Shown here: piece after piece, positions 5,520 to 62,309 of the stretch | How positions within the stretch are numbered: position 1 is the stretch's first letter | Layout of the letters: each line of letters opens with the position of its first letter | Assembly: GCA_017649855.1 (NCBI GenBank) | Contig: JAGCGA010000007.1 | Span: 65,339 to 129,338 of the forward strand | DNA: 64,000 nucleotides | Source: Bacteroidales bacterium | GTDB taxonomy: Bacteria > Bacteroidota > Bacteroidia > Bacteroidales > WCHB1-69 | Direction of reading: 5' to 3' | Program-made: the position numbers and the translations under genes | Notes under the pieces: model-generated | What the model was told of the DNA's origin: nothing | What the model saw: only the letters and a program-made list of their open reading frames with translations | The model's database searches: none

Positions 5520-5543
5520 AATCCTATTTTTAAAAAAAGCGAG

Positions 5544-5551
5544 CAAACATA
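5544..5551 (-). promoter_or_regulatory. -7 box TATGTTTG
   Basis: 25 nt upstream of the recJ ATG at 5519. Confidence 0.45.
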
Positions 5552-5592
5552 CACAAAAAAAATTACAAATTCAACTTTTCGAAAAATTAAAT

Positions 5593-7041
5593 TTACAGCT
5601 TCATTTTTTTGTCGATGTCGTCGATGCTGGCTCGCATCTTTTTATCTGTATCATACAGATTGGCAATGGTTTTGCAGGCATGGAGAACGGTGGCATGATC
5701 CTTGTTGCCACAGTAGGCGCCGATGGTGGAGAGGGGCAGCTTGGTATATTTCTTGGCGAAATACATGCACAATTGGCGCGCGAGGACGATCTCGCTCTTT
5801 CGCGTTTTGGCGTTGATGGTCTCCACGGAGATATTGTAATAGTCGCCAATGATCTTCTGGATATACTCGATGGAGATCTCCTTGGCGCTGGACTTGACAT
5901 ACTTGTCCACCATCTCCTTGGCGAGGTCCATGGTGATCTCCCGGTGGTTGAGGGAGGCCTGCGCAAGGATGGCGATGATGGCGCCTTCCAGCTCGCGGGT
6001 GTTGGACGTGATGCGATAAGCCAGGTAATCCACAATCTCGTCAGGGAACTCGATGCCGTCGTTTTCCAGCTTCTTGCGGATGATGGCATGGCGGGTCTCC
6101 AGATCCGGAATCTGCAGATCAATCGTCAGGCCCCACTTGAAACGGCTGAGCAGACGCGGTTCAAAACCGGAGATATCCACGGGGGACTTGTCGGAGGTGA
6201 TGACAATCTGCTTGTTGTCACGATGCAGGGCATTGAAAATCTGGAAGAAGGTGTCTTGCGTCTTGACCTTTCCACCGCTCATGAACTGGATGTCATCCAT
6301 GATCAGCATATCGAGGGACTGGTAGAAATAGATGAAATCCTGGATATTGTTGTTTTTCATCGCCTGGACATACTGCTGGCAGAAGGTGTCGGCGGTTACA
6401 TACACGACGATCTTTTCCGGAAAGTTGATCTTGGTCTGGATACCGATGGCATTGGCGAGATGGGTTTTGCCCAGTCCCACGTCAGAATAGACGAAGAGCG
6501 GGTTGAAGGAGGTGGTGCCGGGTTCCTTGGAGATGGCCCAGCCAGCTGCGCGGGCCATACGATTGCAGTCGCCCTCCACATAGTTGTCGAACGTCATAGA
6601 GTCGATCAGGTTGGACGGGATCTTACGGCGTTGAATACCCGGGAGCACGAAGGGATCGGGAATCTCGTGGTTCGGCTTGTTAAAGACATCCACCGGAGGA
6701 AGCGTGGAAGGGTTGGTGACGGCCGGGCGGTAGAGCGAAGGCTCCGTCATGAACTTCGACATCTTCGGATCCGGGTTAACCTCTACCGGATAACGGTATT
6801 TGAGCTTGCCCATCGGCCCTAACTGTTTATGGATGACCGTCTTGAGGACATCCACATAGTGCTGTTCCAAAAATTCATTATGGAAAGCACTGGGGGTGAC
6901 GAGCGTCAAAACATTATTCTCCAACGAATAGGGAATCAACGGGGCAAACCAGCTATCAAAGGCCTGGACCCCGACAATTCCGGGGATCATCTTCAGGCAT
7001 TCCGACCACACTTTTCCAGCTTCTACACTTGTATTATTCAT
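5593..7041 (-). CDS. dnaA: chromosomal replication initiator DnaA
   Basis: Walker A SDVGLGKTHL, Walker B LIMDDIQF, C-terminal DNA-binding signature GNKDHATVLHACKTI. Confidence 0.95.
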   Translation of the reverse strand: MNNTSVEAGKVWSECLKMIPGIVGVQAFDSWFAPLIPYSLENNVLTLVTPSAFHNEFLEQHYVDVLKTVIHKQLGPMGKLKYRYPVEVNPDPKMSKFMTEPSLYRPAVTNPSTLPPVDVFNKPNHEIPDPFVLPGIQRRKIPSNLIDSMTFDNYVEGDCNRMARAAGWAISKEPGTTSFNPLFVYSDVGLGKTHLANAIGIQTKINFPEKIVVYVTADTFCQQYVQAMKNNNIQDFIYFYQSLDMLIMDDIQFMSGGKVKTQDTFFQIFNALHRDNKQIVITSDKSPVDISGFEPRLLSRFKWGLTIDLQIPDLETRHAIIRKKLENDGIEFPDEIVDYLAYRITSNTRELEGAIIAILAQASLNHREITMDLAKEMVDKYVKSSAKEISIEYIQKIIGDYYNISVETINAKTRKSEIVLARQLCMYFAKKYTKLPLSTIGAYCGNKDHATVLHACKTIANLYDTDKKMRASIDDIDKKMKL

Positions 7042-7218: not shown

Positions 7219-7947
7219 CTACGAAAGTACATTAGCATACTCTTCATACTTGCCTACATCACACCAAAAATCGCTATTATGCTCATAACCAATTATTTCA
7301 AAATCAGAGACAGATTGTAGATAAAAATCGGTGATTGAGGACTTCTCAACGGTAGGAATAGATTCGAGCATTTCGCGGCGGATGACGTGGATTCCGCTGA
7401 AGGCCATTTCGGCAGTCGGGCCCGTGACGGGGAGACCTTTTCGTTCGTCGGTAGAGACATTATGCCATCCTTGCAGCCGCATAGTCGAGGGATCGAAAAC
7501 GAAATAGCGGGAGGTCTTCCGGTTCCGCACCGCCAGGGTGGCGTCGGCGCAGGAGCTCACATGTGCCTCGAGCAGCGCCTCCAAGGATATGTCGGATACG
7601 ATGTCCACATTATGGATCAGCACGTGCCGGCAGTCTTGCAGCCACGGAGAGGCGAACTTCAGGCCGCCGGCCGTGTCGCGGAGATAAGCCCGCTCGTCGG
7701 AAATCACGATGTCGGCGTCGAAGCGTCGGGCCTTCAGAAAGTCGACGATCTGGTCTGCGAAGTGGTGTACATTGACCACGATCCGCCGTACGCCGGCGGC
7801 GGTCATCCTCGTGACAACCCGCTCCAGCAAAGGGACGTCCTCATACTTGACCAACGCCTTCGGGCGATTGGCCGTCAACGGATAGAGGCGAGTCCCGAGG
7901 CCCGCTGCAAAGATAAATCCGATTAACTCTGGATTGTTAGCAATCAT
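7219..7947 (-). CDS. nucleotidyltransferase family protein (NDP-sugar pyrophosphorylase-like)
   Basis: N-terminal loop FAAGLGTRLYPLTANRPKAL. Start set to MIANNPE (residue 19 of ORF 7219..8001). Confidence 0.7.
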   Translation of the reverse strand: MIANNPELIGFIFAAGLGTRLYPLTANRPKALVKYEDVPLLERVVTRMTAAGVRRIVVNVHHFADQIVDFLKARRFDADIVISDERAYLRDTAGGLKFASPWLQDCRHVLIHNVDIVSDISLEALLEAHVSSCADATLAVRNRKTSRYFVFDPSTMRLQGWHNVSTDERKGLPVTGPTAEMAFSGIHVIRREMLESIPTVEKSSITDFYLQSVSDFEIIGYEHNSDFWCDVGKYEEYANVLS

Positions 7948-13253: not shown

Positions 13254-13649
13254 ATGGAAAACCTGCACATCAGAATCGACAAATGGCTATGGATGGTGCG
13301 GCTCTTCAAGACCCGCTCCCTGGCTACCGAGGCATGCAACGCCGGCAAGGTGAAATGCAACGGTGTCAACGTCAAGCCTTCCAAGGAGGTCAAGACGGAA
13401 GAGGAATACGAGGTGCACATCGGGACGCTCAACAAGCAAGTGCGGGTCCTCGGCACGCCCAAGAGCCGTGTGGGGGCAGCCCTAGTCCCGGACTATTGCG
13501 AAGACCTCACCCCACAGGAGGAGTATGACCGCATGAAGACCCTCCACACCTATGAATATCGGCCGCACGGACTGGGACGCCCCACCAAACGCGACCGCCG
13601 ACAGCTGGAATACATCAAGTCGATGATGGGAGACGGGGAGGAGTTTTGA
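13254..13649 (+). CDS. hslR: S4-domain RNA-binding protein (Hsp15/HslR-like)
   Basis: N-terminal RIDKWLWMVRLFKTRSLATEACNAGKVKCNG is an S4 motif. Confidence 0.7.
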   Translation: MENLHIRIDKWLWMVRLFKTRSLATEACNAGKVKCNGVNVKPSKEVKTEEEYEVHIGTLNKQVRVLGTPKSRVGAALVPDYCEDLTPQEEYDRMKTLHTYEYRPHGLGRPTKRDRRQLEYIKSMMGDGEEF

Positions 13650-13736
13650 CCTTGAACTTTGACCTTGAACTTTGACTTTGAACTTTGACTTTGAACTTTG
13701 ACCTTGAACTTTGACTTTGGCCTTTAGCATTTTGGT
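13645..13736. repeat. A-type array: six 13-mers TTTGACYTTGAAC plus TTTAGCA TTTTGGT tail
   Basis: Units at 13645, 13658, 13671, 13684, 13697, 13710. Read directly. Confidence 0.9.
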
Positions 13737-14681: not shown

Positions 14682-14737
14682 GCCATTGGCTGTTAGCTGT
14701 TAGCCATTGGCTATTAGCCTTTGGCTGTTGGCCTCAG
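14682..14737. repeat. B-type array: eight heptads GCYRTTR
   Basis: GCCATTG GCTGTTA GCTGTTA GCCATTG GCTATTA GCCTTTG GCTGTTG GCCTCAG. Confidence 0.9.
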
Positions 14738-16675: not shown

Positions 16676-16742
16676 GTTGAACTTTGGCTGTTGGCCATTA
16701 GCCATTAGCTGTCACTTCTAACTGTCAACTGCCAACTAACTA
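16676..16742. repeat. compact composite A-B-C element
   Basis: GTTGAACTTTG, then GCTGTTG GCCATTA GCCATTA GCTGTCA, then CTTCTAA CTGTCAA CTGCCAA CTAACTA. Confidence 0.85.
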
Positions 16743-18835: not shown

Positions 18836-19921
18836 ATGTTAGGAATCAACATCAACCAGAATCGCATTTTTGGTCTGGACTTACTGCGAGCTCTGGCCAT
18901 CGTGCTGGTTGTGCATGGTCATGGCGCACACCTGCTGCAAGGCACAGCCCTGTCCGGTGTTCTCAACCTCCCCATGCCTGACACTGTCGATATCTTTTTT
19001 GTACTCAGTGGATTTCTGATCGGGACTGCCTTCCTGTCCTATGCTGAAAAGCATCAACGGGTGGACTGGGGCAAAAACCTGCGCTTCTATGCACGCTCCG
19101 CCTTGAGGATACTGCCCAACTACTATTTCATCCTTTTGATATACTATGTTCTGGTTCATGGACAGATAATTGCCGGTGACACCCAAGCACTCTCTATTTG
19201 GTATTTCATCACCTTCACCCAAAACCTGTTCTCGCCCTTTTACAACTTTTACTGGGAGTCGTGGACCCTGCCTGTGCAATGGTGGTTTTACCTGCTATTT
19301 CCGCTCATACTTGCCCTTCTCACGCCACGAATCAAGGCGAAGCATGCGGTTCCGGTCATCAGCTGTCTTTTCATCCTATTGTCGCTAGTGTATAGATACT
19401 GCGTTGCCAGCCATGCCACGGATCCGTTCTGGTGGGGTGTCTGGATCCGCAAAACCGTCGCCTCGCGATGCGACAGCATCTATCTGGGTGTGTTGGCAGC
19501 CTGGCTGTACACTTACTGCCCCAACTTCTGGAAACGCCACTCGGGGAAATGCCTGATCGCAGGACTGCTCCTATTGGCCTTCATCCTTATATTTCCTCGG
19601 ACTTTTGGCTCCTTTTATGTCAACGTAATCTTATTGACACTTTCCCCCTTAGCCTTTGCCTTGTGTCTCCCGTCTCTTTCGGGCATCCGCAGCAGCAAGA
19701 CCATCTTGGGTGGAATCCTATCCCATATCAGCATCCTTTCCTATGCCATGTATCTTGTCAACCTGATGATCATTCAGATTATCAGTGCCAACTTTGCCGA
19801 GACTTTCAGTCAGTGGGGAGCGTGGGGATATCTTGTTTATTGGGTATGTGTCCTAGTGGCCTCCTACCTGCTTTACATGCTGGTAGAGAAGCCCTTCACC
19901 TTACTCCGAAATCGCCTTTAA
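18836..19921 (+). CDS. acyltransferase family 3 membrane protein
   Basis: GLDLLRALAIVLVVHGH N-terminal motif, about 10 TM segments. Confidence 0.75.
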   Translation: MLGININQNRIFGLDLLRALAIVLVVHGHGAHLLQGTALSGVLNLPMPDTVDIFFVLSGFLIGTAFLSYAEKHQRVDWGKNLRFYARSALRILPNYYFILLIYYVLVHGQIIAGDTQALSIWYFITFTQNLFSPFYNFYWESWTLPVQWWFYLLFPLILALLTPRIKAKHAVPVISCLFILLSLVYRYCVASHATDPFWWGVWIRKTVASRCDSIYLGVLAAWLYTYCPNFWKRHSGKCLIAGLLLLAFILIFPRTFGSFYVNVILLTLSPLAFALCLPSLSGIRSSKTILGGILSHISILSYAMYLVNLMIIQIISANFAETFSQWGAWGYLVYWVCVLVASYLLYMLVEKPFTLLRNRL

Positions 19922-26703: not shown

Positions 26704-27186
26704 ATGAAGACCTTAGAACTCACCTCCAAGATATTCGAATATGAGCGGGAAGAACTCCCGCACGAGGTAGCCATGCTATTGGCCAAGGCCGAAGATGCCG
26801 CCAAACGCGCCTATTCCCCCTACTCCCGCTTTCAGGTGGGCGCCGCCATATTGTTGAACAACGGGGTGGTCGTCACCGGCAGCAACCAGGAAAACGCCGT
26901 CTATCCCTGCGGTCTCTGCGCAGAGCGCACGGCAGCCTTCTCCGCGTCCGCCCAATATCCGGAGGTGCCTTTCTCCAAGATCGCCATCACCGCCATCAAC
27001 CCCGACGAGCCGCTTTCGATGCCCGTGTCGCCCTGCGGCAGCTGCCGCCAAGTGCTCTATGAGTACGAACAGAAGTTCAACCAGCCTATCGAGGTCATCT
27101 TGTCGGGACAGACCGGCCCCATCTACATTCTGCGATGCGTGGCCGACCTGCTGCCCTACACCTTCCATGCTGGCTTTCTGCCCTAA
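26704..27186 (+). CDS. cdd: cytidine deaminase
   Basis: Zinc motifs CAERTA and PCGSCRQ. Confidence 0.85.
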   Translation: MKTLELTSKIFEYEREELPHEVAMLLAKAEDAAKRAYSPYSRFQVGAAILLNNGVVVTGSNQENAVYPCGLCAERTAAFSASAQYPEVPFSKIAITAINPDEPLSMPVSPCGSCRQVLYEYEQKFNQPIEVILSGQTGPIYILRCVADLLPYTFHAGFLP

Positions 27187-28930: not shown

Positions 28931-29725
28931 TTACACTCTATTTAACAAACACAACACAATGGCTCCTGCCACGATGGCCATACCAAAGCTAAGCAAGGTG
29001 CCGACCAACACATATTCTGACTTGTTCGTGGCACTATCTTTGAAACGCAGGAGTGATTTCGCAGCCAGCAGGAAACCGATGGCTTCAAAATGGCCAAACA
29101 TCATAAAAATCAAAGTTAACAATCGCTCCACATCGCCAATCACATGTCCTGCATTGGGCAAATCTTGAGCGGATGCTGGCACATCGGCATCATTGTCTTC
29201 TTGTGATGACGAATCAGACGCAGGATCGTGCGGACACTTGATTTGGGCGTTGGACAGAATTTCACCGATGAAAATATTGGCCGGACGCAGACAAAAGGCA
29301 AAGGCGGTGATCCAGAGCCATGTGGAGTTGGAGATCATATTGAGCGGGGTGACCACGCCATCATAGGGAATTTTATAGCTCACGGTACTGCCAAACCAGG
29401 CAACCACCGCACCAATGACCAGCAGGTGCAACGCTTGGTCTATAAAAAACACCCAAGGGACCTTTTTGAAATGAGCTTTCAACCCGTCAATCACACCATG
29501 CAGCACGGCAATGACCATGGAAGCCCACCAAAAATCAAAAGTATAGGGATACAGGAGCGACAACATCCAAGAACAGAAGAAGGTGATGGCCACATGCACG
29601 TACAAATGCGGTGATTGGAATCCCCATTTGGCCTTATCCTGGCAAGATTTACCTGTTTGCAGATAAAAATCGCTGATGATATGAGCCAATATCTGCAATA
29701 TGAAGAGTTTAATCATCATTATCAA
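28931..29725 (-). CDS. DUF3307 membrane protein (SatE-like)
   Basis: N-terminus LFILQILAHIISDFYLQT, later HGVIDGLKAH and DQALHLL. Start overlaps the SatD-like stop by 8-17 nt depending on which Met is used. Confidence 0.6.
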   Translation of the reverse strand: MIMMIKLFILQILAHIISDFYLQTGKSCQDKAKWGFQSPHLYVHVAITFFCSWMLSLLYPYTFDFWWASMVIAVLHGVIDGLKAHFKKVPWVFFIDQALHLLVIGAVVAWFGSTVSYKIPYDGVVTPLNMISNSTWLWITAFAFCLRPANIFIGEILSNAQIKCPHDPASDSSSQEDNDADVPASAQDLPNAGHVIGDVERLLTLIFMMFGHFEAIGFLLAAKSLLRFKDSATNKSEYVLVGTLLSFGMAIVAGAIVLCLLNRV

Positions 29726-30416
29726 GATTTAGGGTTTCATAGTAAAGCACCGCCTGCTCCAATGCGTTCCAGCCGACCGCGGTGCTATGCTGATTGACAG
29801 CTGATTGCTTGATATTCAATATTTCAGCTATCTCCATCTCTGTTTTTCCGGAGAGTTTCTGATACAAGACCTCGCACTGACGCGCATTGGCCTTTCGAAG
29901 CAACACGTCGATGAGGCCCAACAACACATTCATCTGTTGCGTCAAGGAGTCGTTGTCGGCTTTGAAGAAGAGAGTATTCTTGATCACCGCCCGCTCCTTC
30001 TGGGAGGTTCCTTGGTATTCCATCAAGCGCCCGGCGTAGTAGATAGCCTCGCCATCCAGCGTATCACGCTCTTTGTCGGCAACACGCATTTCGCCCAAGC
30101 CGATAGCCATCCGAATGCCATATTTCTTGAAAAGGATTCTTTTATTTTTCCTTTCCGGAGTTGCGTCTTCCAGATCCTTCAAAGGCATCTGTTTCACCAA
30201 CGTCTTCAATTTCAAGGCCGTACGCAGCGCTTTGTGGGGATCAGACAAGAAAATCTCCACCGCGTCTCCCTTGACTATTCTACCCCACTGTGTGGTAGTA
30301 TCGTCATGTTCAAGTTCACTCAAGAAACGGCGGATACTTTGGTTAAGGGCACTCTTCTCCTCCATGGACAAGGAGGAAGAGGATACGATATCGGCTGAGA
30401 TAGCTGCTTGTACCAT
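29709..30416 (-). CDS. SatD-like protein: cyclase-homology-like N-domain plus C-terminal HTH
   Basis: N-terminus AAISADIVSSSSL ... IVKGDAVEIF. C-terminus QCEVLYQKLSGKTEMEIAEILNIKQSAVNQHS is a sigma70-region4/LuxR-type HTH. Confidence 0.55.
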   Translation of the reverse strand: MVQAAISADIVSSSSLSMEEKSALNQSIRRFLSELEHDDTTTQWGRIVKGDAVEIFLSDPHKALRTALKLKTLVKQMPLKDLEDATPERKNKRILFKKYGIRMAIGLGEMRVADKERDTLDGEAIYYAGRLMEYQGTSQKERAVIKNTLFFKADNDSLTQQMNVLLGLIDVLLRKANARQCEVLYQKLSGKTEMEIAEILNIKQSAVNQHSTAVGWNALEQAVLYYETLNLDNDD

Positions 30417-30441: not shown

Positions 30442-30447
30442 CATTTT

Positions 30448-30534
30448 TTATAAGTAAAAACACTTATAAAAATAATTTATAAGTAAAAAAGCTTATAATA
30501 CATATTTATAAGCAAATAGACTTATAAACAAGGT
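30448..30534 (-). promoter_or_regulatory. three tandem 29-bp units, each with inverted repeat TTATAAG-N8-CTTATAA (candidate operator array)
   Basis: Units start at 30448, 30477, 30506. Half-sites at 30448, 30463, 30477, 30492, 30506, 30521. Array lies between the galE stop and the -7 box of the SatD-like gene. Confidence 0.6.
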
Positions 30535-31571
30535 CAATGAGATCCTTCGGAATCCAGATATTGTTCCCATTTCCAGGCGCTCTCCATCATATCATGCACA
30601 TTATAGCGGCAATTCCAATGAAGGAGGGTATTGGCGCGGGAGCTGTCGCCGTAGATAGCGGGGATGTCGCCTGCGCGGCGGCCGCCGACGGTATAGTTGA
30701 GTTTATGGCCGACGACCTCCTCGGCGGCCGCCAGCATCTCCATCACGGAAATGCCGTTGCCGCTGCCCAGGTTGAAGACCTCGCACTGTTCCTGATTACG
30801 GTGTTCGAGCAGATAGTCCATGGCCTTGACGTGCGCATCAGCGATATCGGAGACATGGAGATAGTCACGGATGCAGGAGCCGTCGCGTGTATCGTAGTCG
30901 GTGCCGAACACCTGCATCGAGGGCTGCTTGCCTGAAGCCACCCGCATGATGATGGGCACCAGATTGTTGGGCTTGTCGGGCGAAAGTTCGCCGTTCATGC
31001 CGGAGATGTGCGCTCCCACGGGGTTGAAGTAGCGAAGGATGAGCGCGTTCATAGAGGGATTGGGCACCATCATATTGCGAATCATCTCCTCCCCTATCTG
31101 TTTGGTATGCGCATAGGGGCAGAAAGCCTGACCCATCGGAGTCTTCTCGCTGACGGGCAGATTCTTGACATCGCCATACACGGAGCAGGAAGAGGAGAAT
31201 ATCAGTGCCTGGATGCCGAAGTGCAGGCAGGCCTCCAACACGTTGGCCAGCGCGCCGAGGTTATTGCGATAGTACATCAGCGGCTGCTCCACCGACTCGC
31301 CCACAGCCTTGTAGGCGGCGAAATGGATGATACCTTGTATGTCGGGATTCTCCTCAAAGACCTTGAAAAAGGCTGCCTTGTCGCAGATATCGACCTTGTA
31401 GTTGGGCACCTTCACGCCAGTGATCCGCTCCACGCGGCGCATTGTCTCGGGTGTACTTCTGACATTGTTATCCACGGACACCACTTCATAACGGCCACTT
31501 TGCACCAGCTCAATGATGGTGTGGGAGCCGATATAGCCACAACCGCCGGTCACCATAATTTTCTTCTTCAT
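30534..31571 (-). CDS. galE: UDP-glucose 4-epimerase
   Basis: VTGGCGYIGSH, YAHTK (YxxxK), 345 aa. Confidence 0.9.
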   Translation of the reverse strand: MKKKIMVTGGCGYIGSHTIIELVQSGRYEVVSVDNNVRSTPETMRRVERITGVKVPNYKVDICDKAAFFKVFEENPDIQGIIHFAAYKAVGESVEQPLMYYRNNLGALANVLEACLHFGIQALIFSSSCSVYGDVKNLPVSEKTPMGQAFCPYAHTKQIGEEMIRNMMVPNPSMNALILRYFNPVGAHISGMNGELSPDKPNNLVPIIMRVASGKQPSMQVFGTDYDTRDGSCIRDYLHVSDIADAHVKAMDYLLEHRNQEQCEVFNLGSGNGISVMEMLAAAEEVVGHKLNYTVGGRRAGDIPAIYGDSSRANTLLHWNCRYNVHDMMESAWKWEQYLDSEGSH

Positions 31572-43288: not shown

Positions 43289-43328
43289 CAAAAAATAATT
43301 GTATTATTGCAGCGAAATCATCATCATT

Positions 43329-44513
43329 ATGAAGTCGAACCATTTTTTTACTTGGTTGCTTATGCTCAGCCTGTTGTGCACAAATCTCGCAGTGACAGCG
43401 CAGAACGACACCATCCCTTTTCTCTACCGTGGGCATCTCTACTTTAACGCCACCCTCAACGACACCATCCGCCTCAACATCATATATGACACCGGAGGCG
43501 CCGACCTGTTCGGGGTGGACTCCGTATGGCTGGCCCATTCCAACTGGACGCCCATGCATGTTGTCACTGCCCGGGGCGGAGGCGGGGCCGGCTCCATGCT
43601 CGTTCCACTCATCATCGATCAAACAAAGGTCAACATCGGCAGTATCCAGGAATATTACGACATGGTTCCGGTCTTCAAACTGCGGGAGGTGGTGGACTGC
43701 CACATCGACGGCATCAGTGGCATCAAGGGCATTGAAAACCATCCGTTGGAGATCAACTTCGAGCACAACTTGATGATCCAGCACAAAAACGGCCTGCCCG
43801 ACACAGAAGGTTATCAGAAAATCCCCATCAGACACGAAAACAACCGTATATACCTTCAGGCAGAGACCAAAATCGGAGGCACCCTAGTCAAAGGATGGTA
43901 TCTGATGGACACTGGCAGCGGCGGCTCCGTCACTTTCACTTCCCAAACCGCCAGCCAATTCCAATTCGACACCATATCCGGAAAAAGATATATCAACGAT
44001 GTCATCCAAAGCGGCCTGGGCGACAAGACTGAGGAATACGCCATCAGCATGATGCCCGACTTCATGGTTATCGGGGACGACACCATCTCGGGAAGGCCTC
44101 TCAACTACAAACCTGAAGGCGTGGGCGCTTTCGGCAACGCAGAATACCTGGGGGTGATCGGCAACGCCATCTGGTCGAAGTACAACATTATCATCGATTC
44201 GGAAAACGAGATGCTCTACCTGCGTCGTTTCAAGGAGTTCACCCCGCCCATCCCCGCTTATGACTATACTTTCAGAAACCGCACGGATATCTGCAAAGGC
44301 TGGGTGGTCTCAGGAATGACCCGCGAGGGGGATGCCGCCAACGCAGGCATGGCGTTGGGCGACACCATCATCTCCATCAACGGAAGAAACGTGACCGACT
44401 ACTCCTGGGAAGAGGAATGGGACATCGACACCATCCCCATGCAGGTGCTGGACATCCTAGACCACGACGGCACCGAAAAACGCATTACGCTGGAGGCGAA
44501 GCAATGGTGGTAG
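43329..44513 (+). CDS. secreted pepsin/retropepsin-like aspartyl protease with C-terminal PDZ domain
   Basis: Two D-T-G motifs (IIYDTGGADL, LMDTGSGGSV). PDZ-like GDAANAGMALGDTIISINGRNV. Signal peptide from MKSNHFF (43329). Confidence 0.65.
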   Translation: MKSNHFFTWLLMLSLLCTNLAVTAQNDTIPFLYRGHLYFNATLNDTIRLNIIYDTGGADLFGVDSVWLAHSNWTPMHVVTARGGGGAGSMLVPLIIDQTKVNIGSIQEYYDMVPVFKLREVVDCHIDGISGIKGIENHPLEINFEHNLMIQHKNGLPDTEGYQKIPIRHENNRIYLQAETKIGGTLVKGWYLMDTGSGGSVTFTSQTASQFQFDTISGKRYINDVIQSGLGDKTEEYAISMMPDFMVIGDDTISGRPLNYKPEGVGAFGNAEYLGVIGNAIWSKYNIIIDSENEMLYLRRFKEFTPPIPAYDYTFRNRTDICKGWVVSGMTREGDAANAGMALGDTIISINGRNVTDYSWEEEWDIDTIPMQVLDILDHDGTEKRITLEAKQWW

Positions 44514-44520
44514 GATATCA

Positions 44521-44622
44521 GCTGTTGGCTGTTGGCCATTAGCTATTAGCCATTGGCGGGTAGGGTGACTTTGACTTTGAACTTTGACTTTGAACTTTGG
44601 ACTTCTAACTGATAACTGATCA
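44521..44622. repeat. composite B-A-C element
   Basis: Six B heptads (44521-44562), A run TTTGAC/TTTGAAC (44566-44601), three C heptads (44602-44622). Confidence 0.9.
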
Positions 44623-46152
44623 CTTTTTGAAGGGCAGCGAAATCATGAAGGTACTCCCCTTCCCCTCGATGCTCTGCACCTCGATCTTGCCTTTGTGCAG
44701 GTTCACAATCTTCTTCACATAGCCCAGACCCAGGCCGTAGCCCTTCACATTGTGCACGTTGCCACTGGGCACCCGGTAGAAGTTGTTGAAGATCTCACCC
44801 AGCGACTTCTTCGGAATCCCGATGCCCTTGTCGGTGACAGAGAGCATGAAATATTTGTCGTTGGAGAGGGTGTTGATGAGGATCTCCGGCTCGTGTTCCG
44901 AATACTTGATGGCATTTTCCACGAGGTTAACCAGCACATTAGTTAAATGCTCTTTGTCTCCGAATATCTTATAGTTATCTGCATTGAGCGCCAGATTGAG
45001 AGAGCCATTATTGCTGTTCACCAGCAGGGCCACACTGTCCACCACTTTCCGGATCAACTCGTGCATATCCAGCAGCTCAACGTTCATCTTGACCTGTCCT
45101 TTTTTGAGCTGCGCAATTTGCAGGATGTTGGTCACCATGGAACGAAGCCGCTCGTTCTCATCATGGATGATGTTGACGTATGCGGTCTGCATGTCGGGAT
45201 CCGACATGGTCACGTTGTCGCCCAGCGCCTCGCAGGCCAGCGAGATGGTGGAAATGGGCGTCTTGAACTCATGGGTCATGTTGTCCACAAACTCATTGGT
45301 CACCTCCGACACTTTTTTCTGGCGATAGAGGGAGATCAGGGAGACCAAGGAGATGGCAGAGACCAGGAAGAGCAGGAAGAGAATCATGATCACGATGGTG
45401 CTCATCCTTTGGAGGAAGATTCCGCGCTCACCGGGGAAATAGAGGATGATATAGTGGGGAGAGCTCACCTTCTCATTGTATTTCAGGCGGAACACATAAT
45501 CGCTCTGGAGCATCTTCTCGCGCGGCATATAGGCCGGCTCCACCACAAACTCAGTGGTGAATGCATTGTAGAGGGCGAAGTCGAAGCGGGCTTCGATGGT
45601 CTCCTCATGGAGGGCCTCCTCCAACAGGTTGCGCAGGAGACTGGGTGACAGCAGCAGCTTCGTCGTGCTGTCGAGCTGCACCATGTTGACATCCACATTC
45701 TCGAGGAAGCTGTTGGGAATCTCCTCCTGGTTCTTGGGCGACCATGGGTCTTTGTACAATGGGAAGAGTGTCCGGAAGGAGTCGCTGAAGTAGGTGGTGT
45801 CGCTGGAAACGACGCGCGCATTGTCTTCTTTCAGGTAGATCTCCGTCATAATCACCCCTATAGGCTGATTCTTCGCACTGTCTATCAAAAATTTACGAAT
45901 ATTCTGCACCGAGACCACATCCGAGGTGTCCATCGTTCCCGTCAAGGTAGTGTCGGCCAGGGGAAGCGTGTCGTTCTTCAAGATGGCATCGATCTGGTCC
46001 ACCACGGTGTTGCCAGCGGAGAGCACCTCATTGACGAAGATGCTGCGCTGCACCTTCTCCGCCTCCGTGTAGAGCTTGAAGATGGAGAGCATCAGAAAGA
46101 AGGTGGTGACAATCACCACTAAAAACAGCGAAACTAATATTCTCTTTTTCAT
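44620..46152 (-). CDS. sensor histidine kinase
   Basis: H-box MTHEFKTPISTI, N-box LVNLVENAIKYS, G-boxes DKGIGI and GYGLGL. Two TM segments. Confidence 0.85.
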   Translation of the reverse strand: MKKRILVSLFLVVIVTTFFLMLSIFKLYTEAEKVQRSIFVNEVLSAGNTVVDQIDAILKNDTLPLADTTLTGTMDTSDVVSVQNIRKFLIDSAKNQPIGVIMTEIYLKEDNARVVSSDTTYFSDSFRTLFPLYKDPWSPKNQEEIPNSFLENVDVNMVQLDSTTKLLLSPSLLRNLLEEALHEETIEARFDFALYNAFTTEFVVEPAYMPREKMLQSDYVFRLKYNEKVSSPHYIILYFPGERGIFLQRMSTIVIMILFLLFLVSAISLVSLISLYRQKKVSEVTNEFVDNMTHEFKTPISTISLACEALGDNVTMSDPDMQTAYVNIIHDENERLRSMVTNILQIAQLKKGQVKMNVELLDMHELIRKVVDSVALLVNSNNGSLNLALNADNYKIFGDKEHLTNVLVNLVENAIKYSEHEPEILINTLSNDKYFMLSVTDKGIGIPKKSLGEIFNNFYRVPSGNVHNVKGYGLGLGYVKKIVNLHKGKIEVQSIEGKGSTFMISLPFKK

Positions 46153-54061: not shown

Positions 54062-54171
54062 CAACTTTATCTCCACATTTCACCTCAAACTGTAGCTGTC
54101 ATCCCCTTCTACCAAGCTTTAACCCCTGCGGGGTTTCTCGCACCCTGCAACTCATCGTGCCAAGGCTTTAA

Positions 54172-54206
54172 CTCTTAACTGCTAACTGACAACTGTCAAC
54201 TCCTTA
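54172..54206. repeat. C-type array: five heptads
   Basis: CTCTTAA CTGCTAA CTGACAA CTGTCAA CTCCTTA. Confidence 0.85.
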
Positions 54207-56660
54207 CATTCCCATTCCTTGGCCGCCCTGACCGCCTTGGGCTTGTGCTTGGGCGCCCTCCAGTTCCATCTTGCCGAACTTGAAGGAGATGCCGCCACGG
54301 ATGCTGCGGCCCATCCAGTTGCTCCAGGTGGTGCTACTGAGCGTATAGTACGGATTGTTGACATCGGTGCCTCTCCGGTTCCAGTTGAAGATGTCGTGCA
54401 CATCCACAAAGACAGAGATGCGGCGCTTCCAGAACTCGGCGCGCAGACCGGCATCGATGCTGTAGCGCGGACGCGTAACCGTGAACATATTCACGCTCTT
54501 GGAGGTGTAGTTAGCCGAAGCGTTGACCTCCAAAAACTTCCACAGCTTGGCCCAGAAATTCAAACGGAAACTATAGCCTAAATTGTCCACCACATGCGGT
54601 TCCTCCTGATCACGGAACTGAAAGCTGGACTTCATATAGTAAACATTGGCATAGAAACGAATGTTCATGAAGGCCTTGAGACGGTACATCACATTCAACT
54701 CCGCACCCGTGTTGAGCGATTTGCCCGCATTGACTGGCATGGTATAGGTGACATAACGCCTAAAGAAGGGGCTGTAAGCCACATCCGACTGCGAGCTGAA
54801 CTCGTCCTTGCTGTTCTTGAACCAGGCGTTGAGGCCGACATTGCCGAACTTGTTGATGTATTTGGTCCAGCCGGCCTCGATGGAATTGGTGAAGCTCTGT
54901 CGCAAGTCAGGATTGCCAACGCTGTAGCCATCCTCGCCGTAATAGATACGGGTGCACAAGTTGTCACCGTCGGGATTGTTCACGCGGCGCGTGTAACTGA
55001 GCTTGAAGTTATGCATGTTCTTGGTGCGGTAGCTCAAGTGGAGGGAAGGGTAAAGTCCCCAATAGCCCTTGTGCACATCGTATTGAGGGTCGTTGAGGAT
55101 AAGCAGGTTGTAGATTTCATACTCGGTGCGCAGACCGCCCTTGAGGGTGAAGCCGCCGAAACGGTGCTGCAATGTGACGTAAGCGTCCACACTGCCATCT
55201 CGGGTGCGCACATCCTTGAAACGGAGCTCATCCAGCACATATTCGCCGGTAGAAAAAACCAACGTGTCGTAGCGTTCATAATTCAAGCCTGGATCATATC
55301 CGCCCGACACGCCCAATTCTATTTCCCCGTTTTTATGATAAGGGATAGTATAGTCCACGGAGGCACTCAATCCAAACGAACGGTAGTGATTCTCCAGCTT
55401 CTGCTTTTTGTCTAGATTGTCCAGAAAAAGGTAATCACGGAAGGCATCACCTTTTTGCTTTCTGCCCCACGTCCAAAAACTCACATCAGCGCTGATCTTG
55501 TGGCCCTTGCTGTTGAACTTGTGCTCGTACCACATTCCACCATAGCCGCCGCCACCGACCGTGCTTTGTGTCTGGTCATTGAAGAAAGAACGATCGCTGG
55601 GATTGATATATTCTAGGTAAAAGGTGGAATCCCGATAGGTGTAACTGCCAAAGCTGGGATAGGTGCCCGCCCAGAAGTAGATGCTGTTCATCGTATCGGG
55701 CGTGTAGGAGCCGTTAATGTAGAGGCCGAAGTTGTGATCCCGTTGCCGGAACTTGTTGATACTATGAATTGTAGTAGAGGTGTCGCCCTCATCCGTCAAT
55801 ATCGTGGCGAACGACTCGCTATTATTCTTGTCAGTGCCATAGGAGTAGTTGAGATAGGTACTGATGGAGAACTTCTCGTTGGCATAGACATAGGAGATAA
55901 AAGGGGTGATGCTGGGCGTGGAGGAACCGCGCACACCAAAGCTCAAGAAGCTGTTTTTCTTGATTTTGGAGGTGGTCACGATGTTGATGATGCCGCCGCT
56001 GCCCTGGGCGCTGTAGCGGGCCGACGGGTTGGTGATCACTTCTATTTTCTCGATGCTGCCGGCGGGCATCTGCTGGATGAACTGCTTGAGCGCCTCGGCG
56101 TTCATGTTGGAGGGCTTGTTGTTGATCCAGATCTCCACGGAGGAGACACCGCGGAGGGTCACGTTGCCATCCACATCCACCTCCACACCGGGGGCGTTCT
56201 GTAAGGCGTCCGCAGCGGTTCCCGACTGTATGGTGGGGTCCTCCGAGACATTGTAGAGCGTCTTCTCGCCATCCACCATATAGAGAGGCTTCTCGCCCAC
56301 GATCTGCACCACATCCAGGTCGGTGCTCGTCTTCTTCATATAAACATTACCCATGTCGATGGTCTTGCTATCGCCACCCACCGTAAAGGGCATATTGACC
56401 ATCTCATAGCCGATAAGGGTAGCCACAAAACGATACTCGCCGGCGGGCACATTCGACATCTGGAATACGCCTTGGGCATCCGACAGCGAATGGGCGATCG
56501 TCTGGGCCGTGGAGTCCGGCTTCAACAAACCGATGGTGACGAACATCACCTTTTCATTGTTGAGGGAATCCATCATCGTGCCGGTGATGGTATAGCGACT
56601 TTGGGCCCACAATTGTGCAAAAGCACTTAAAAAAAGAACAAAAACAAGCAATCGTTTCAT
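54204..56660 (-). CDS. TonB-dependent-receptor-like outer-membrane beta-barrel protein
   Basis: Signal peptide. CarboxypepD_reg-like start YTITGTMMDS, plug-like region, long barrel, terminal aromatic-rich strands. Start at MKRLLVF (56660). Confidence 0.7.
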   Translation of the reverse strand: MKRLLVFVLFLSAFAQLWAQSRYTITGTMMDSLNNEKVMFVTIGLLKPDSTAQTIAHSLSDAQGVFQMSNVPAGEYRFVATLIGYEMVNMPFTVGGDSKTIDMGNVYMKKTSTDLDVVQIVGEKPLYMVDGEKTLYNVSEDPTIQSGTAADALQNAPGVEVDVDGNVTLRGVSSVEIWINNKPSNMNAEALKQFIQQMPAGSIEKIEVITNPSARYSAQGSGGIINIVTTSKIKKNSFLSFGVRGSSTPSITPFISYVYANEKFSISTYLNYSYGTDKNNSESFATILTDEGDTSTTIHSINKFRQRDHNFGLYINGSYTPDTMNSIYFWAGTYPSFGSYTYRDSTFYLEYINPSDRSFFNDQTQSTVGGGGYGGMWYEHKFNSKGHKISADVSFWTWGRKQKGDAFRDYLFLDNLDKKQKLENHYRSFGLSASVDYTIPYHKNGEIELGVSGGYDPGLNYERYDTLVFSTGEYVLDELRFKDVRTRDGSVDAYVTLQHRFGGFTLKGGLRTEYEIYNLLILNDPQYDVHKGYWGLYPSLHLSYRTKNMHNFKLSYTRRVNNPDGDNLCTRIYYGEDGYSVGNPDLRQSFTNSIEAGWTKYINKFGNVGLNAWFKNSKDEFSSQSDVAYSPFFRRYVTYTMPVNAGKSLNTGAELNVMYRLKAFMNIRFYANVYYMKSSFQFRDQEEPHVVDNLGYSFRLNFWAKLWKFLEVNASANYTSKSVNMFTVTRPRYSIDAGLRAEFWKRRISVFVDVHDIFNWNRRGTDVNNPYYTLSSTTWSNWMGRSIRGGISFKFGKMELEGAQAQAQGGQGGQGMGM

Positions 56661-56802
56661 AACTTCGCGAAGCAAATGATGAATACTAGAACATCAGACA
56701 ATCAATATATCAATTCCTTACGGTAAAAATCCGTATGCAAAAATCCTCCACAAAGAGAAGACGCAAAAATATAAAAAAGTGCCAAGCATGAACGAGATTT
56801 TG

Positions 56803-58442: not shown

Positions 58443-60434
58443 CTATTCGCCTTGGAGGATTGCGCGCAGCTCCTCCACAGAGAAGCAGACCTTGCGGACG
58501 CGCGGGGCACGCACGTGCTTACGCTTCGGGGACTTCGGCACGACAGGGGGCTCCGAGAAGCGCTGACATATTCCATAGCCCGCCATCACACAATACTGAA
58601 GGAGCATCTGCCCGGTCGGATCCTCAATCGCCAGACTGCTATGGACATTACTCCGAAGATCTTCCATACTATTCATAAAGAAATAGTCGGCCAGGTCGGC
58701 ACGAATAGTATAATAGTAAATCAACTGATCATGGCTAATTACCAGCGAGTCAATTCTTCCAAAGTTGGGAATCTCCATCGGGCAATAGCGATTGTTCGAC
58801 CTCACTATCAGGGACAAGGCGTTACGGCTTTCGAACAGCGGATCGCCGTCGTTCGTCAGCAAAAAGCGAACCTCTTGGGGAGAGTAGGTAAATTGGAGGG
58901 AGTCCTGGGTGGGGACATACAGATAATGCAGCTGGATTCCCAGGCCGAGTTGGACGATATATTGGCCGAACTCATTCCGGCTTTCTGTTCGTAACGCGAA
59001 TTCCATCAACTCGTCCAGGCCGGCTGTATCCAAAAAGTCCAGCACTTCTTCCTTCATCTCGTAATAGAAATGCACTGTCTCCCCATCATATACAACCTTG
59101 GTCATCATCACACTGCCAGCAGGGATCGGGCACTGTTCATTGACCAACTCCACTAATTGATTGAAGTCTGCCTGTTCCAGCTTTGCCATGGCTGCCGTCT
59201 GCAGATCCTCATGGGAATAAAACGCCTTGGGTTCCGCATTTTGCAATTCATCCACGCTCATTATGACCTCAGAATAACGACGAGTTTTATTCTCCACGAA
59301 TACCAAACGCACCCCTTTCAACAGTTTGTAACAATGTTCCAGCGTATAGACCTTATTGCCTTTGACCGCAGGAGGAAACTCTTCCAACAATAGATAAGCC
59401 CAATGCGAAAGCAGGATATCTTTGAGCGCCGTGGCTGCTTGCTGATCCATCACCTTCTCATCTTCATAGGTAAGAACAAGCTGAAGGATATCATCCTCAT
59501 AATCGAATTCCATATCCATCAACTCCTCGTCACGAGCAATCATTTCTTTCCGTGAATTTTCTAAATCCTCACGAAAGAACTCTTTCAGATAGGTTCGCAT
59601 CTCATCATCGGAAGCCTCCTGCAGGTGTTCTGACTGCGCCATCAATTGCTGCAATTGCTCGTTGGGAAAATCCAGCTTGAAAGAGCGAGTATGGTCCGCA
59701 TCCCAATACAAGAATCGCAGTCCGTAACCAGCATAGAACAAAGCGCTTGTGAATGGATGATTGAAGAGAAGCACATTGGTGATGTTCTTTTTCGTCACAT
59801 CCAACCCAGGAAGCACTTCCTCATCCCAAGAGAGCGGAACTCTCAACGAATAGGAATAGGTCAGCCAGGAATCTACCAACATGACCGTATCCATAGAGAA
59901 CACATCGTCCTCGGGTTCTCTCTCTTGATTCTCCGTATAGATCTGTCTGGCCACCAGATAGCGAGCCACCCACTGGTCGGAATTTTTATATTCGGGTTTG
60001 TCGCTGTCTTTCAGAAACTGCCGGACCTCCTCCGCCGAGTAACGCAAGGTAATGACACTATCATTTTCCATCAAGCGAAACACATAGACAAGACCTCCTT
60101 TCACATCTTCTTTTAAAGGAATATAGAATGCACCAAACGGTTCCAGCCACTCTTGATATCGAAGTCTATCGGCAAAGTGCTGTCTCAGGGTCACGCTATC
60201 AAATCCCGCCAGATCACTCTCCTCTATCGTTGCATAGAAACAGAGGGAGCCTTCTTTGAAACGGAAATCAGTAATGATGCAGTCTTCCATTTGAATGGGA
60301 CATACAGCATCCGCCGTTTGGTTGATTCGCTGGGCATATTGCGAAGTGGTAGGCTGCGCCTGCACATCCATACACAGCAGACACACCCACGCACAGACGA
60401 GCCAGCCACCCCACGAAAAATGTTGATCAGACAT
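58443..60434 (-). CDS. secreted protein of five tandem ~130-aa modules, unknown function
   Basis: Signal-like N-terminus. Five module ends: RYSAEEVRQFL, DFPNEQLQQLM, IMSVDELQNA, TYSPQEVRFLL, CFSVEELRAIL. Confidence 0.65.
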   Translation of the reverse strand: MSDQHFSWGGWLVCAWVCLLCMDVQAQPTTSQYAQRINQTADAVCPIQMEDCIITDFRFKEGSLCFYATIEESDLAGFDSVTLRQHFADRLRYQEWLEPFGAFYIPLKEDVKGGLVYVFRLMENDSVITLRYSAEEVRQFLKDSDKPEYKNSDQWVARYLVARQIYTENQEREPEDDVFSMDTVMLVDSWLTYSYSLRVPLSWDEEVLPGLDVTKKNITNVLLFNHPFTSALFYAGYGLRFLYWDADHTRSFKLDFPNEQLQQLMAQSEHLQEASDDEMRTYLKEFFREDLENSRKEMIARDEELMDMEFDYEDDILQLVLTYEDEKVMDQQAATALKDILLSHWAYLLLEEFPPAVKGNKVYTLEHCYKLLKGVRLVFVENKTRRYSEVIMSVDELQNAEPKAFYSHEDLQTAAMAKLEQADFNQLVELVNEQCPIPAGSVMMTKVVYDGETVHFYYEMKEEVLDFLDTAGLDELMEFALRTESRNEFGQYIVQLGLGIQLHYLYVPTQDSLQFTYSPQEVRFLLTNDGDPLFESRNALSLIVRSNNRYCPMEIPNFGRIDSLVISHDQLIYYYTIRADLADYFFMNSMEDLRSNVHSSLAIEDPTGQMLLQYCVMAGYGICQRFSEPPVVPKSPKRKHVRAPRVRKVCFSVEELRAILQGE

Positions 60435-60442
60435 ATAAAAAG

Positions 60443-60586
60443 TTGTCAGTTGTCAATTATCAGTTGTCAGTTTTAGTCAATGTTCAAAGTCAAAGTCAAT
60501 GTTCAAAGTTCAAAGTTTCCGGTTTCAAGATGAAATAGCTAATAGCCAATGGCTAACAGCTAACAGCCAATGGCCAACAGCCAAAC
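60443..60586. repeat. composite element in inverted orientation (C'-A'-B')
   Basis: TTGTCAG TTGTCAA TTATCAG TTGTCAG (60443-60470). GTCAATGTTCAAAGTCAAAGTCAATGTTCAAAGTTCAAAG (60476-60515). Seven heptads GCTAATA..GCCAAAC (60538-60586). Confidence 0.9.
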
Positions 60587-62233
60587 CTAAAGATTCACAT
60601 TCTGGTCCTTCGGGTACTTCACGCTGTAGGAGACGCTGAAGGTGCGGGTCTCGCCGGCCTTGAGTTCCATCTCCCAGGTCAGGACGCCAATGCCCTCCTT
60701 GTTATAGGTAGCGGCGGGAGTCACATCGCCCAGCTTGACCTCGATGTCCTTGTTGTTGGAGATCGGATACTGCTCCTTGAGCGTCAGCTTCACAGGCTTG
60801 GTCTGGTTGTTTTTGACCGTGATCTGGTATGCCTGGGTGACGGTCGTGGTGTTCCCCACATGCTTGGTGCTACAGTAGTTGCTCATCTTCTCCCGTTTGA
60901 CGGAGATGCGTGGGTCGGTGGTCAGCGTCAGCGATATATGCTCATCGGTCACATTGGGGCGCAGGAAAGTCTTGCCCACGAAAGTGTTCTCGAAGGTCAC
61001 GGTAGCGTAGCCCGGCAACAGGTTGTATTGTTCATAGTCGGACAGGTCGGCGATGAGGTAGGTCTCGTCAGACAGCTTCGGGGCGCTGTAGTACTTGTAG
61101 TCGGCCTTGATGTCGTAGCTCTTCAGGTCGATGAGCTGCTCTTTGCCGTTGCCGGGGATGTCGTAGGGCACCGAGATATTGTAGTTGACGGCCACCTCCT
61201 GCATATCCACGTCCACGTAGTCGTCCATCACCAGCGGCGCGGTGGGCGTCCTGGCAGAGGAACTCTCGGCATCTTTGGCCGAGACGCCTTCCAGAGAAGC
61301 AGTCGCGTATGTGACACTATTGCTTCTGGCTTGCACCCCATCCACAATGTAGGATTTGCCCTGACGATGAGGATTGTAAAAGCTGAGGAACCACGTCTTG
61401 AACACGGGGGCCTCCTTCGTGCGGTTGGGCGTGGCGTTGGAGAGTGTCAGTTTCACGTTGTTCCAGTCGATGCCCGTCACCTGCGTCACCTGGGCTTTGG
61501 ATTTCAGCACCACAGGCTTGTCCATGGAGGCGATGTTGATGTCGTAGCAAGGCACCCAGCTGGCCATAACGGTAAAATAGGAGATGGTGAACACCGTGTT
61601 GACCGTCTGCGGCACGCTCACGGTGAGGCGAAGCACGCCCGTGCGCTGCTTGTCTTTGGACTGATCCTGGGAGATCTGCCGCTGAAGACGTTTCACCGTC
61701 TCGTCCAGCTTGGCGATTTTGAGGTTATCCTGGTCGATGCTATGCTGCAGCGGGGCAGCCTTCGACTTATAGAGTTCCATGTTGGCGTTGATGTCGGCCA
61801 CGGAAACGGTGCCATCCTTCTGACTCATATTGTTGAGGGTGCCGTCGGTGAGCATCTTGAGCAGATGGGTATGGACGGTCAACTCGTCCTTAGCCTCCTG
61901 CAGCTGGCGTTTGTAGGAGTACAAGGAGTCTTGCAACTTCTTGATGCGGGCGCTCTCTTCCTTGGGGGTGATATAATCGTTGGAGAACTCAGAGGCGGAG
62001 ATGAGCACGCCGTTGGCGGAGACCTTCAGGCTGGCAATCTCAATATCGGGGCTCAGCCCATTGATCATGACATCATAGCTTCCGCTCTTCAGCGAGGCGG
62101 TGGCCGTATGGGTCAGGGCGGCGCCTTGCAGATAGACGGTGGCATGGTCAATCTTGGCGGTAAACTCATTCTGGGCAAAAAGGGCGGAGAGAGCCCCTGC
62201 AAAAAGCATAATCGTGAGCAGAACTTTTTTCAT
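60587..62233 (-). CDS. DUF4139 / mucoidy-inhibitor MuiA-like protein
   Basis: Signal peptide. N-terminal VTVYLQGA-type start (ATVYLQGAALTH), central coiled coil, C-terminal beta domain. Start at MKKVLL (62233). Confidence 0.6.
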   Translation of the reverse strand: MKKVLLTIMLFAGALSALFAQNEFTAKIDHATVYLQGAALTHTATASLKSGSYDVMINGLSPDIEIASLKVSANGVLISASEFSNDYITPKEESARIKKLQDSLYSYKRQLQEAKDELTVHTHLLKMLTDGTLNNMSQKDGTVSVADINANMELYKSKAAPLQHSIDQDNLKIAKLDETVKRLQRQISQDQSKDKQRTGVLRLTVSVPQTVNTVFTISYFTVMASWVPCYDINIASMDKPVVLKSKAQVTQVTGIDWNNVKLTLSNATPNRTKEAPVFKTWFLSFYNPHRQGKSYIVDGVQARSNSVTYATASLEGVSAKDAESSSARTPTAPLVMDDYVDVDMQEVAVNYNISVPYDIPGNGKEQLIDLKSYDIKADYKYYSAPKLSDETYLIADLSDYEQYNLLPGYATVTFENTFVGKTFLRPNVTDEHISLTLTTDPRISVKREKMSNYCSTKHVGNTTTVTQAYQITVKNNQTKPVKLTLKEQYPISNNKDIEVKLGDVTPAATYNKEGIGVLTWEMELKAGETRTFSVSYSVKYPKDQNVNL

Positions 62234-62309
62234 GATAAGCAAATATTAAATGAAACAATATTTGAAACGGCTAAAATATCAAAATATTACAATAGATAAA
62301 TAAATATTG

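Follow-up and report, generated by a model that had tools for sequence, protein, structure and literature searches.

What are the short tandem repeats that occupy nearly the whole gap between two converging genes of a gut bacterium, and why do they lie there? We addressed this question at positions 44521-44622 of a 64,000-nucleotide stretch (hereinafter the window) of contig JAGCGA010000007.1 (GenBank assembly GCA_017649855.1) from an uncultured ruminant-gut Bacteroidales bacterium, where a gene for a PDZ-domain protein and a gene for a histidine kinase converge upon a composite of three repeat modules, denoted B, A and C in the order in which they occur. With high confidence we assign this element to the heptanucleotide (and 6+7 = 13-nucleotide [nt]) simple-sequence repeat arrays, the class that comprises the long simple sequence repeats, the cyanobacterial STRRs and the TAACTGA repeats. 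The arrays change length by whole units, are confined to stop-side spacers and contain, in module B, a strand-asymmetric hairpin that is biased to the sense orientation behind genes in many genomes. For their role we propose an explanation on which we are evenly divided, namely that slippage-driven arrays would survive nowhere but in 3′ spacers and that B would work as a stem-loop at the 3′ end.

Anatomy of the arrays and their place at gene ends

The spacer (44514-44619) is 106 nt long and consists almost entirely of short-period arrays in the order B6-A-C3. Its features, together with the flanking genes, are as follows:

43299-44513, plus strand: PDZ-domain gene, with its TAG stop at 44511-44513
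44521-44562, plus strand: module B, six GCYRTTR heptads, which form a hairpin in the PDZ-gene sense RNA
44566-44604, plus strand: module A, alternating TTTGAC/TTTGAAC with a 13-nt period (6+7), 46% T, no structure
44602-44622, plus strand: module C, CTTCTAA CTGATAA CTGATCA, containing TAACTGA twice
44620-44622, minus strand: stop of the histidine-kinase open reading frame (ORF), seen here as its reverse complement inside the last C heptad

The module sequences and both flanking stops read as the first-pass annotation had given them. Each B heptad in this array amounts to a palindromic hexamer TRGCYR plus one T, and the two TAACTGA copies in C form an exact tandem pair at 44606-44619 that reads TAACTGATAACTGA. 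Tandem Repeats Finder recovered all three modules both here and at 13645, 14689, 16694 and 60441-60584, with periods of 7 and 13 (= 6+7) at all loci, in agreement with direct reading. The other array loci of the window are:

13644-13728, plus strand: A array of about 6 x 13 nt, then one B-like unit (GGCCTTTAGC), upstream of nadA
14682-14737, plus strand: B array of eight heptads between nadA (plus) and dus (minus), B only, forming a hairpin
16676-16742, plus strand: one A unit (16676-16686), four B units (16687-16714) and four C units (16713-16739), ending in the DUF819 stop
54166-54203, plus strand: C array CTTTAAC TCTTAAC TGCTAAC TGACAAC TGTCAAC, C only, adjoining the stop of a receptor gene
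60435-60586, minus strand: full B-A-C composite (B 60533-60584, A 60476-60526, C 60438-60472)

The same three modules had been claimed for five other loci; the modules do recur, but the full B-A-C order is found again only at 60435-60586. Against dinucleotide-preserving shuffles of the window, (GCYRTTR)3 with at most one mismatch gave 15 matches at four loci (0.00 expected), a 19-mer of A gave eight at three loci (0.00 expected) and the C pattern gave 11, ten of them in the four C arrays (0.34 expected). The proposal of a multi-copy family at gene ends is thus borne out. The C arrays other than that at 44602 are built of one-base variants of TAACTGA (e.g., CAACTGA, TAACTGC and CAACTGT).

That the arrays always lie at gene ends also holds, as all six adjoin a stop codon. 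Four of these stops lie within the array itself: that of an S4-like gene (TGA at 13647-13649, in the first unit of the A array upstream of nadA), that of dus (14714-14716, where the last ~6 dus codons are likewise array sequence), that of the DUF819 gene (16740-16742, minus strand) and that of the kinase. The neighbor of the array at 54166-54203 is a TonB-dependent-receptor-like gene (54204-56675, minus strand), and the composite at 60435-60586 is flanked on one side by the stop of a DUF4139 gene (60587-62242) and on the other by the start codon of ORF 58443-60434. The domains encoded by the flanking genes include OMP_b-brl_3, CarboxypepD_reg and DUF4139/4140; these domains, spacer sequences like the Bacteroidetes -7 promoter motif and the named homologs of the PDZ protein all assign the host to an uncultured member of the Bacteroidales. 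When junctions were counted on a map of the window's genes guided by GC content at third codon positions (GC3), arrays were present in both convergent junctions with a gap of at least 15 nt and in none of the four with a gap of at most 8 nt or an overlap. They were further present in 4/19 tandem gaps of at least 15 nt, always against the stop of the upstream gene, and in none of the five divergent (promoter) gaps. Forward C at 44602, 16713 and 54166 leads into a stop codon, that of a gene which converges or lies on the minus strand; only the C at 60438-60472 precedes a start codon. Four of the six convergent pairs of the window (2583/2592, 8432/8437, 19901-19921 and 27183-27186) abut or overlap and leave no room for a terminator.

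The forward frames of both full B-A-C composites hold three to six stops each, and their reverse frames are partly or fully open. With stops in all three forward frames, any reading frame that enters an array ends at its edge. Thus, of the earlier statement that the element exactly fills the convergent gap, the occupation of the spacer by arrays stands, but the exactness of the fit is largely a by-product of the stop codons that the arrays carry in every forward frame.

The Bacteroidetes -7 promoter motif is TAnnTTTG, and the spacers of the window hold sequences resembling it; a promoter scan made no calls in the array spacers. As TTTG is the Bacteroidetes -33 promoter element, we also considered module A as a stack of such elements, which is plausible only upstream of nadA and impossible for the convergent gap at 44566. 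The ORF that starts beside the C module at 60438-60472 (58443-60434) codes for 663 amino acids, has a GC3 of 0.57 (0.7-0.8 in its neighbors) and no Pfam match, and may be a horizontally acquired gene or one with a miscalled start. Among the stretches collected from other genomes (numbered with an L below), L040, a Paludibacteraceae metagenome-assembled genome (MAG), has at ~7840-7850 a minus-strand ATG (N-terminus MAKVGIYGG...) within an GCCAATGGC unit of an array, indicating that arrays can supply start codons too; by eye, the predicted N-terminus resembles NadD.

The B hairpin, its strand and the turnover of the arrays

Module B repeats in both direct and inverted form (TRGCYR plus one unpaired T), so that any B unit can pair with any other. 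RNA of its forward strand adopts a regular stem, made up of 6-bp blocks with single mismatches between them and including G·U pairs, with -17.9 kcal/mol at 44521-44562 (z -1.9), -27.9 kcal/mol at 14682-14737 (z -2.9), -26.8 kcal/mol at 60533-60584 (z -4.8) and -28.5 kcal/mol in L027 (RGIG7251, a water-buffalo caecum genome that is a sister species of the host); over the B arrays z ranges from -1.9 to -4.9. The reverse strand of B folds more weakly because the G·U pairs turn into C·A mismatches. Modules A and C have minimum free energies of ~0 kcal/mol and no structure.

A bias in the orientation of B reaches well beyond the host. An exact B 20-mer (GCCATTGGCTGTTAGCTGTT) occurs in 45 stretches of a 596-Gb collection of species-representative genomes, against ~1 expected. 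Most are from Bacteroidota of several orders (Hymenobacter, ruminant/gut Bacteroidales, Alistipes, Petrimonas, Porphyromonas, Chitinophaga, Saprospiraceae and Flavobacteriales), and a few are from Anaerolineae, Dehalococcoidia, Acidobacteriota, Desulfobacterales and Peptococcaceae; for module A, the only carriers found were the window species and RGIG7251. The search word is strand-neutral. Since stop-to-stop ORF statistics are confounded by shadow frames in GC-rich genomes, the upstream genes were verified with Pfam: forward B starts -1 to 21 nt past the stop of a verified same-strand gene in 14/15 tested loci, and Pfam returned nothing for five ORFs that had looked like antisense shadows on inspection by eye. 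The reverse strand of B lies directly behind a likely gene end only in L010 and L016. Behind stops, sense-oriented B thus accounts for ~16 independent loci and antisense B for at most two. At many of the 20-mer loci an inverted array (B′) follows 0-120 nt after B and the whole spacer is one long hairpin.

Beside the B arrays of L020 (~5490-5620, a Tidjanibacter MAG), L026 and L052 (both Porphyromonas MAGs) we observed mosaics of short-period repeats with units such as (TATAAGGCC)n, (CCCTGTTAC)n, (CTACTAGTG)n and (CTCTAAT/CTCTAGC)n. Other heptad families appear in more distant relatives (L140 2544-2636 and 15717-15759; L142 16615-16651), including a GATTATC/GATTATA inverted pair around a spacer, CTAAACT arrays and CTTCAGT arrays.

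Array length differs in whole units between near-identical strains, as variable-number tandem repeat (VNTR) behavior had been expected to appear. Strains were compared through assemblies encoding an identical NadA protein; over the 6.9 kb used from the window, an ENA metagenome contig (ERZ27256979 k141_4048383, 157.6 kb) matches at 100% identity. Upstream of nadA, the A array lacks 26 nt (2 x 13) in a strain with 98.1% identity across 6.9 kb, and 33 nt (2 x 13 + 7) are missing from it in three further assemblies. In the array at 16676, 6/33 positions differ against a background of 1.9%; its ortholog in RGIG7251 has seven B and nine C units. C units are reshuffled between strains, and length changes within arrays come in steps of 6, 7 or 13 nt. 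One strain difference within the array of the nadA/dus spacer (14714-14737) turns a dus codon from Arg to Lys. An exact-protein lookup with the DUF4139 gene returned no record.

Among sister species, arrays at one and the same spacer are retained, shortened or gone. The named homologs of the PDZ protein come from genomes of Bacteroidales and Prevotella, and the PDZ/kinase spacer of relatives reads as follows:

L006 (PDZ protein 78% identical): 253 nt, with B6, A, unique sequence with a hairpin, and C8
L144 (PDZ protein 81% identical), 2100-2135: a 3-unit B stem, then TTTATTTTTT, with both stop codons inside
L004 (PDZ protein 79% identical): a 19-nt remnant
L002 (PDZ protein 87% identical): other repeats in place of the arrays

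PDZ homologs at 60-64% identity were set aside as uninformative for this comparison, as synteny with the kinase is lost. In the 87% relative the spacer after the PDZ gene is unrelated, and a 10-11-nt tandem repeat, TTTCGGCATAA, lies at the contig end (L002 8240-8283, L003 3073-3116).

Affinities among described repeat classes

The first-pass annotation found no described repeat class for the element. This does not hold, as module C contains exactly (TAACTGA)2, the heptamer repeat of MacGregor 2015 (Front Microbiol 6:1397, PMC4679880). That work reported intergenic direct repeats of TAACTGA in Beggiatoaceae, 15 cyanobacteria and five Bacteroidetes, with further heptamers next to them in the spacers of Bacteroidetes, stops in each forward frame, indels in 7-nt steps, contigs that break within the repeats and close relatives devoid of them at the same spacer; in Microcystis, repeat sets sit stop-to-stop (PMC4679880). 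The likeness thus extends from the exact TAACTGA doublet to intergenic location, mixed heptamers, forward-frame stops, 7-nt steps, contig breaks and loss in relatives. Of the marks of that family, at least two tandem copies and an intergenic site are found here, whereas the forward orientation just upstream of a start is not: in Beggiatoaceae and Flexibacter TAACTGA stands in sense just upstream of start codons, but here forward C mostly runs into a converging stop. Modules A and B, moreover, are not described in MacGregor 2015, and the ruminant-gut host lies outside its five Bacteroidetes (PMC4679880).

A broader frame is offered by the long simple sequence repeats with 5-11-nt units of Mrazek 2007, which, as summarized in PMC4679880, are most commonly heptanucleotides in most bacterial genomes and were attributed to polymerase slippage. 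With these, to judge from the same summary, our arrays share head-to-tail units, length beyond chance, the heptanucleotide class, a proposed slippage origin and a sporadic distribution among taxa. Units of at most 11 nt set head to tail, lengths greater than chance and whole-unit polymorphism between strains are all found here. Long simple sequence repeats are, however, a generic class without a functional or positional definition, and the B-A-C layout and the palindromic unit are specific to the present arrays.

The cyanobacterial STRRs and the heptamers of Nostoc are likewise tandem heptamers of non-coding spacers, and here as there a single genome holds several unit families. STRR1, STRR2 and STRR3, reportedly defined by Mazel et al. 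in 1990, are said to have the units CCCCAGT, TTGGTCA and CAACAGT; the reverse B unit CAACAGC is identical to STRR3, so given, at 6/7 positions. Membership in the STRRs proper was rejected, as the unit is none of the three reported and the host belongs to the Bacteroidales rather than to the heterocystous cyanobacteria; STRRs, besides being from another phylum, are not reported as tandem palindromes. The Nostoc heptamers TTTTGAA, which resembles the A unit TTTGAAC, and GACYAAT modulate expression or promoter output in reporter assays (bioRxiv 10.1101/2022.06.06.494920), and, as a further difference, those studied lie near promoters and start codons.

The classes that the first-pass annotation had excluded fared variously. 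CRISPR arrays remain excluded, as the units are contiguous and of 6-7 nt, not repeats of 23-50 nt with unique spacers, and so do MITEs, as there are no inverted pairs in 44400-44750 or 60380-60650 and the junctions differ between copies. No Rfam family was matched at gathering thresholds, and relaxing the cutoff to E up to 1 brought up a single match, weak and unrelated, at 52024. The REPs of enterobacteria are discrete 20-40-nt units with a conserved head that are spread by RAYTs. The repeat is probably no such element, but the claim that it is not a REP-type hairpin overlooked that B is a tandem palindrome with a long hairpin: like REP/BIME elements it is an imperfect extragenic palindrome in many copies in 3′ intergenic sequence, with an RNA stem-loop behind the stop, whereas it is an open-ended array of 7-nt units presumably resized by slippage, and the variable unit number argues against a discrete element. 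Comparison with Rho-independent terminators is similarly divided. The B hairpin comes straight after the stop and is followed by the T-rich A, and a true T-run is found in L144, where TTTATTTTTT after the mini-B stem has the canonical shape of an intrinsic terminator, and in L025, where TTTTTT follows B. On the other side are the stem mismatches, which recur at every 7th base in the window, the interrupted and offset tail, and the absence of a call in a consensus scan.

Explanations weighed and what the locus adds

Drawing on these patterns, we propose that replication slippage would create and resize the arrays, and that the stops in every forward frame together with the need for intact promoters would confine them to 3′ spacers, where they could grow until they touch, or themselves supply, a stop codon. 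In the sense transcript of the upstream gene, B would fold right after the stop into a stem-loop containing G·U pairs, which might serve as a terminator stem or as a barrier against 3′ exonucleases, insulating the converging genes; A would then be an expanded U-rich tail and C a spacer, both unstructured. With copy number not fixed, any effect of an array would be tunable and dispensable. A bolder extension, which we regard as unlikely, is that of a slippage-tunable 3′-end module across Bacteroidota, in which B length would set termination or 3′-end protection and the heptads of A and C would be platforms for single-strand binders. Were it true, repeat number would be a heritable, rapidly adjusted dial on read-through and antisense collision of neighboring genes, and the 7-nt period would fit the footprint of cold-shock-domain, S1 or RRM-1 proteins.

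Several findings weigh against the proposed 3′-end role. The arrays are lost in close relatives (L004), and A, B and C are absent from 480 kb of control loci with NadA homologs 49-59% identical, of which the host taxa were not identified; a metagenome scan with NadA had returned only relatives of at most 59% identity, which permit no orthologous comparison and were kept as this negative control. Loss in L004 and absence from the controls indicate that the arrays are dispensable. In the window the first UUU comes 12 nt past the B stem, in a tail with interruptions (UUUGACUUUGAAC); a consensus scan for terminators made no call in any array spacer, and a T-rich tail follows B in 11/44 loci against a background of 12.8%, a weak enrichment. 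Three haplotypes close the nadA/dus B hairpin with G-C, G-U or A-U, but this single covarying pair is weak evidence: the best fold of the A-U haplotype shifts register, and one arm of the hairpin lies in the dus coding sequence. Finally, the arrays at 16676 and 54172 have C in reverse complement behind the stop, and not B; the modules thus keep no fixed order with respect to the gene.

The main rival, to our minds possible but on balance doubtful, is that the arrays are neutral debris of slippage that have no function, are purged elsewhere through the stops they introduce or the promoters they disturb, and perpetuate themselves by unit turnover. Copy-number differences between near-identical strains, the collapse or disappearance of arrays in sister species, the sporadic distribution among taxa with no array in the 480 kb of control loci, the lack of a canonical terminator tail in the arrays of the window and the intrusion of arrays on gene ends, altering the last dus codons, are all as this would have it. 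What it does not predict is the sense bias of B behind stops, its weakest point: both strands of B carry stop codons, and neutrality consequently leaves the strand bias unexplained. The recurrence of the same heptads across orders and phyla, both in the 20-mer search and in PMC4679880, and the retention of B arrays at the same spacer in species whose flanking proteins are 78-81% identical also argue against it. A different function, quite unlikely in our estimate, would be that of a multivalent platform for a single-strand binder with a ~7-nt footprint (cold-shock-domain, S1 or RRM-1), or for a DNA-binding protein at B half-sites of the type TTGGC(N5)GCCA, with copy number setting occupancy. 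A and C are fully unstructured and so accessible as single strands, and RRM-1 single-strand RNA binders with 5-8-nt motifs are abundant in Bacteroidetes. Bacillus subtilis CspB prefers the heptanucleotide GTCTTTG/T (PMC1904285), which by direct comparison the A heptads GACTTTG and AACTTTG match at 6/7 and 5/7 positions; S1, Csp or CsrA have been proposed for the TAACTGA repeats (MacGregor 2015, PMC4679880), and heptamer repeats in Nostoc change promoter output (bioRxiv 10.1101/2022.06.06.494920). The sole tested RbpB motif (GUAGGAUA) is, however, unlike A, B or C, the three unrelated units would need three specificities or one very relaxed one, and the dispensability of the arrays in close relatives tells against such a platform too.

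We consider it very improbable that the arrays are mobile or transposase-dependent, be it as REP/BIME-like palindromes spread by RAYTs, as MITEs or as stacked 7-bp footprints of transposon targets. The REP-like position of B as an extragenic palindrome at gene 3′ ends, the pairs of B and inverted B′ at many other loci, which resemble terminal inverted repeats, and the identical 20-mers in distant phyla would suit such an origin, although shared 20-mers are to be expected of a unit with only ~8 variants. Neither an inverted-repeat pair nor a target duplication surrounds the arrays of the window, the junctions differ between the two B-A-C composites, lengths change inside arrays in steps of 6, 7 or 13 nt, and orthologous sites vary in how many units they hold, not in whether a discrete element is there. 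The B and A words had no match in 2.9 million viral contigs, a result on which a link to phages was also rejected. To an artefact of short-read metagenome assembly we give next to no credence: short-read contigs often stop inside arrays (L001, L008 and L009), but the same arrays were recovered in independent assemblies from other samples and by different assemblers (L001, L055-L059), with unique flanks on both sides and coherent strain-level differences.

Reports of heptanucleotide tandem repeats go back decades for cyanobacteria and to 2015 for Beggiatoaceae and Bacteroidetes. Newly described here are the tandem-palindrome unit B found across Bacteroidota, its sense bias behind stops and the composite B-A-C layout. 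The locus adds an abundant animal-gut lineage to the carriers of heptanucleotide repeats, a GCYRTTR unit that is both direct repeat and palindrome and is word-for-word common to several Bacteroidota orders, and the combination of sense-strand bias behind stops with strain-level variation in copy number; these features provide testable handles on the long-standing question of what heptanucleotide repeats do. In practical terms, short-read contigs break at the arrays and gene-end predictions are displaced by them, which bears on the quality of metagenome-assembled genomes.

Elsewhere in the window, an AT-rich tandem repeat of ~29 nt (30447-30528), with a palindrome TTATAAG...CTTATAA in each copy, lies in the 117-nt spacer of two minus-strand genes (29709-30416 and 30534-31571) and, judged by its sequence, looks like an operator or iteron-like array.

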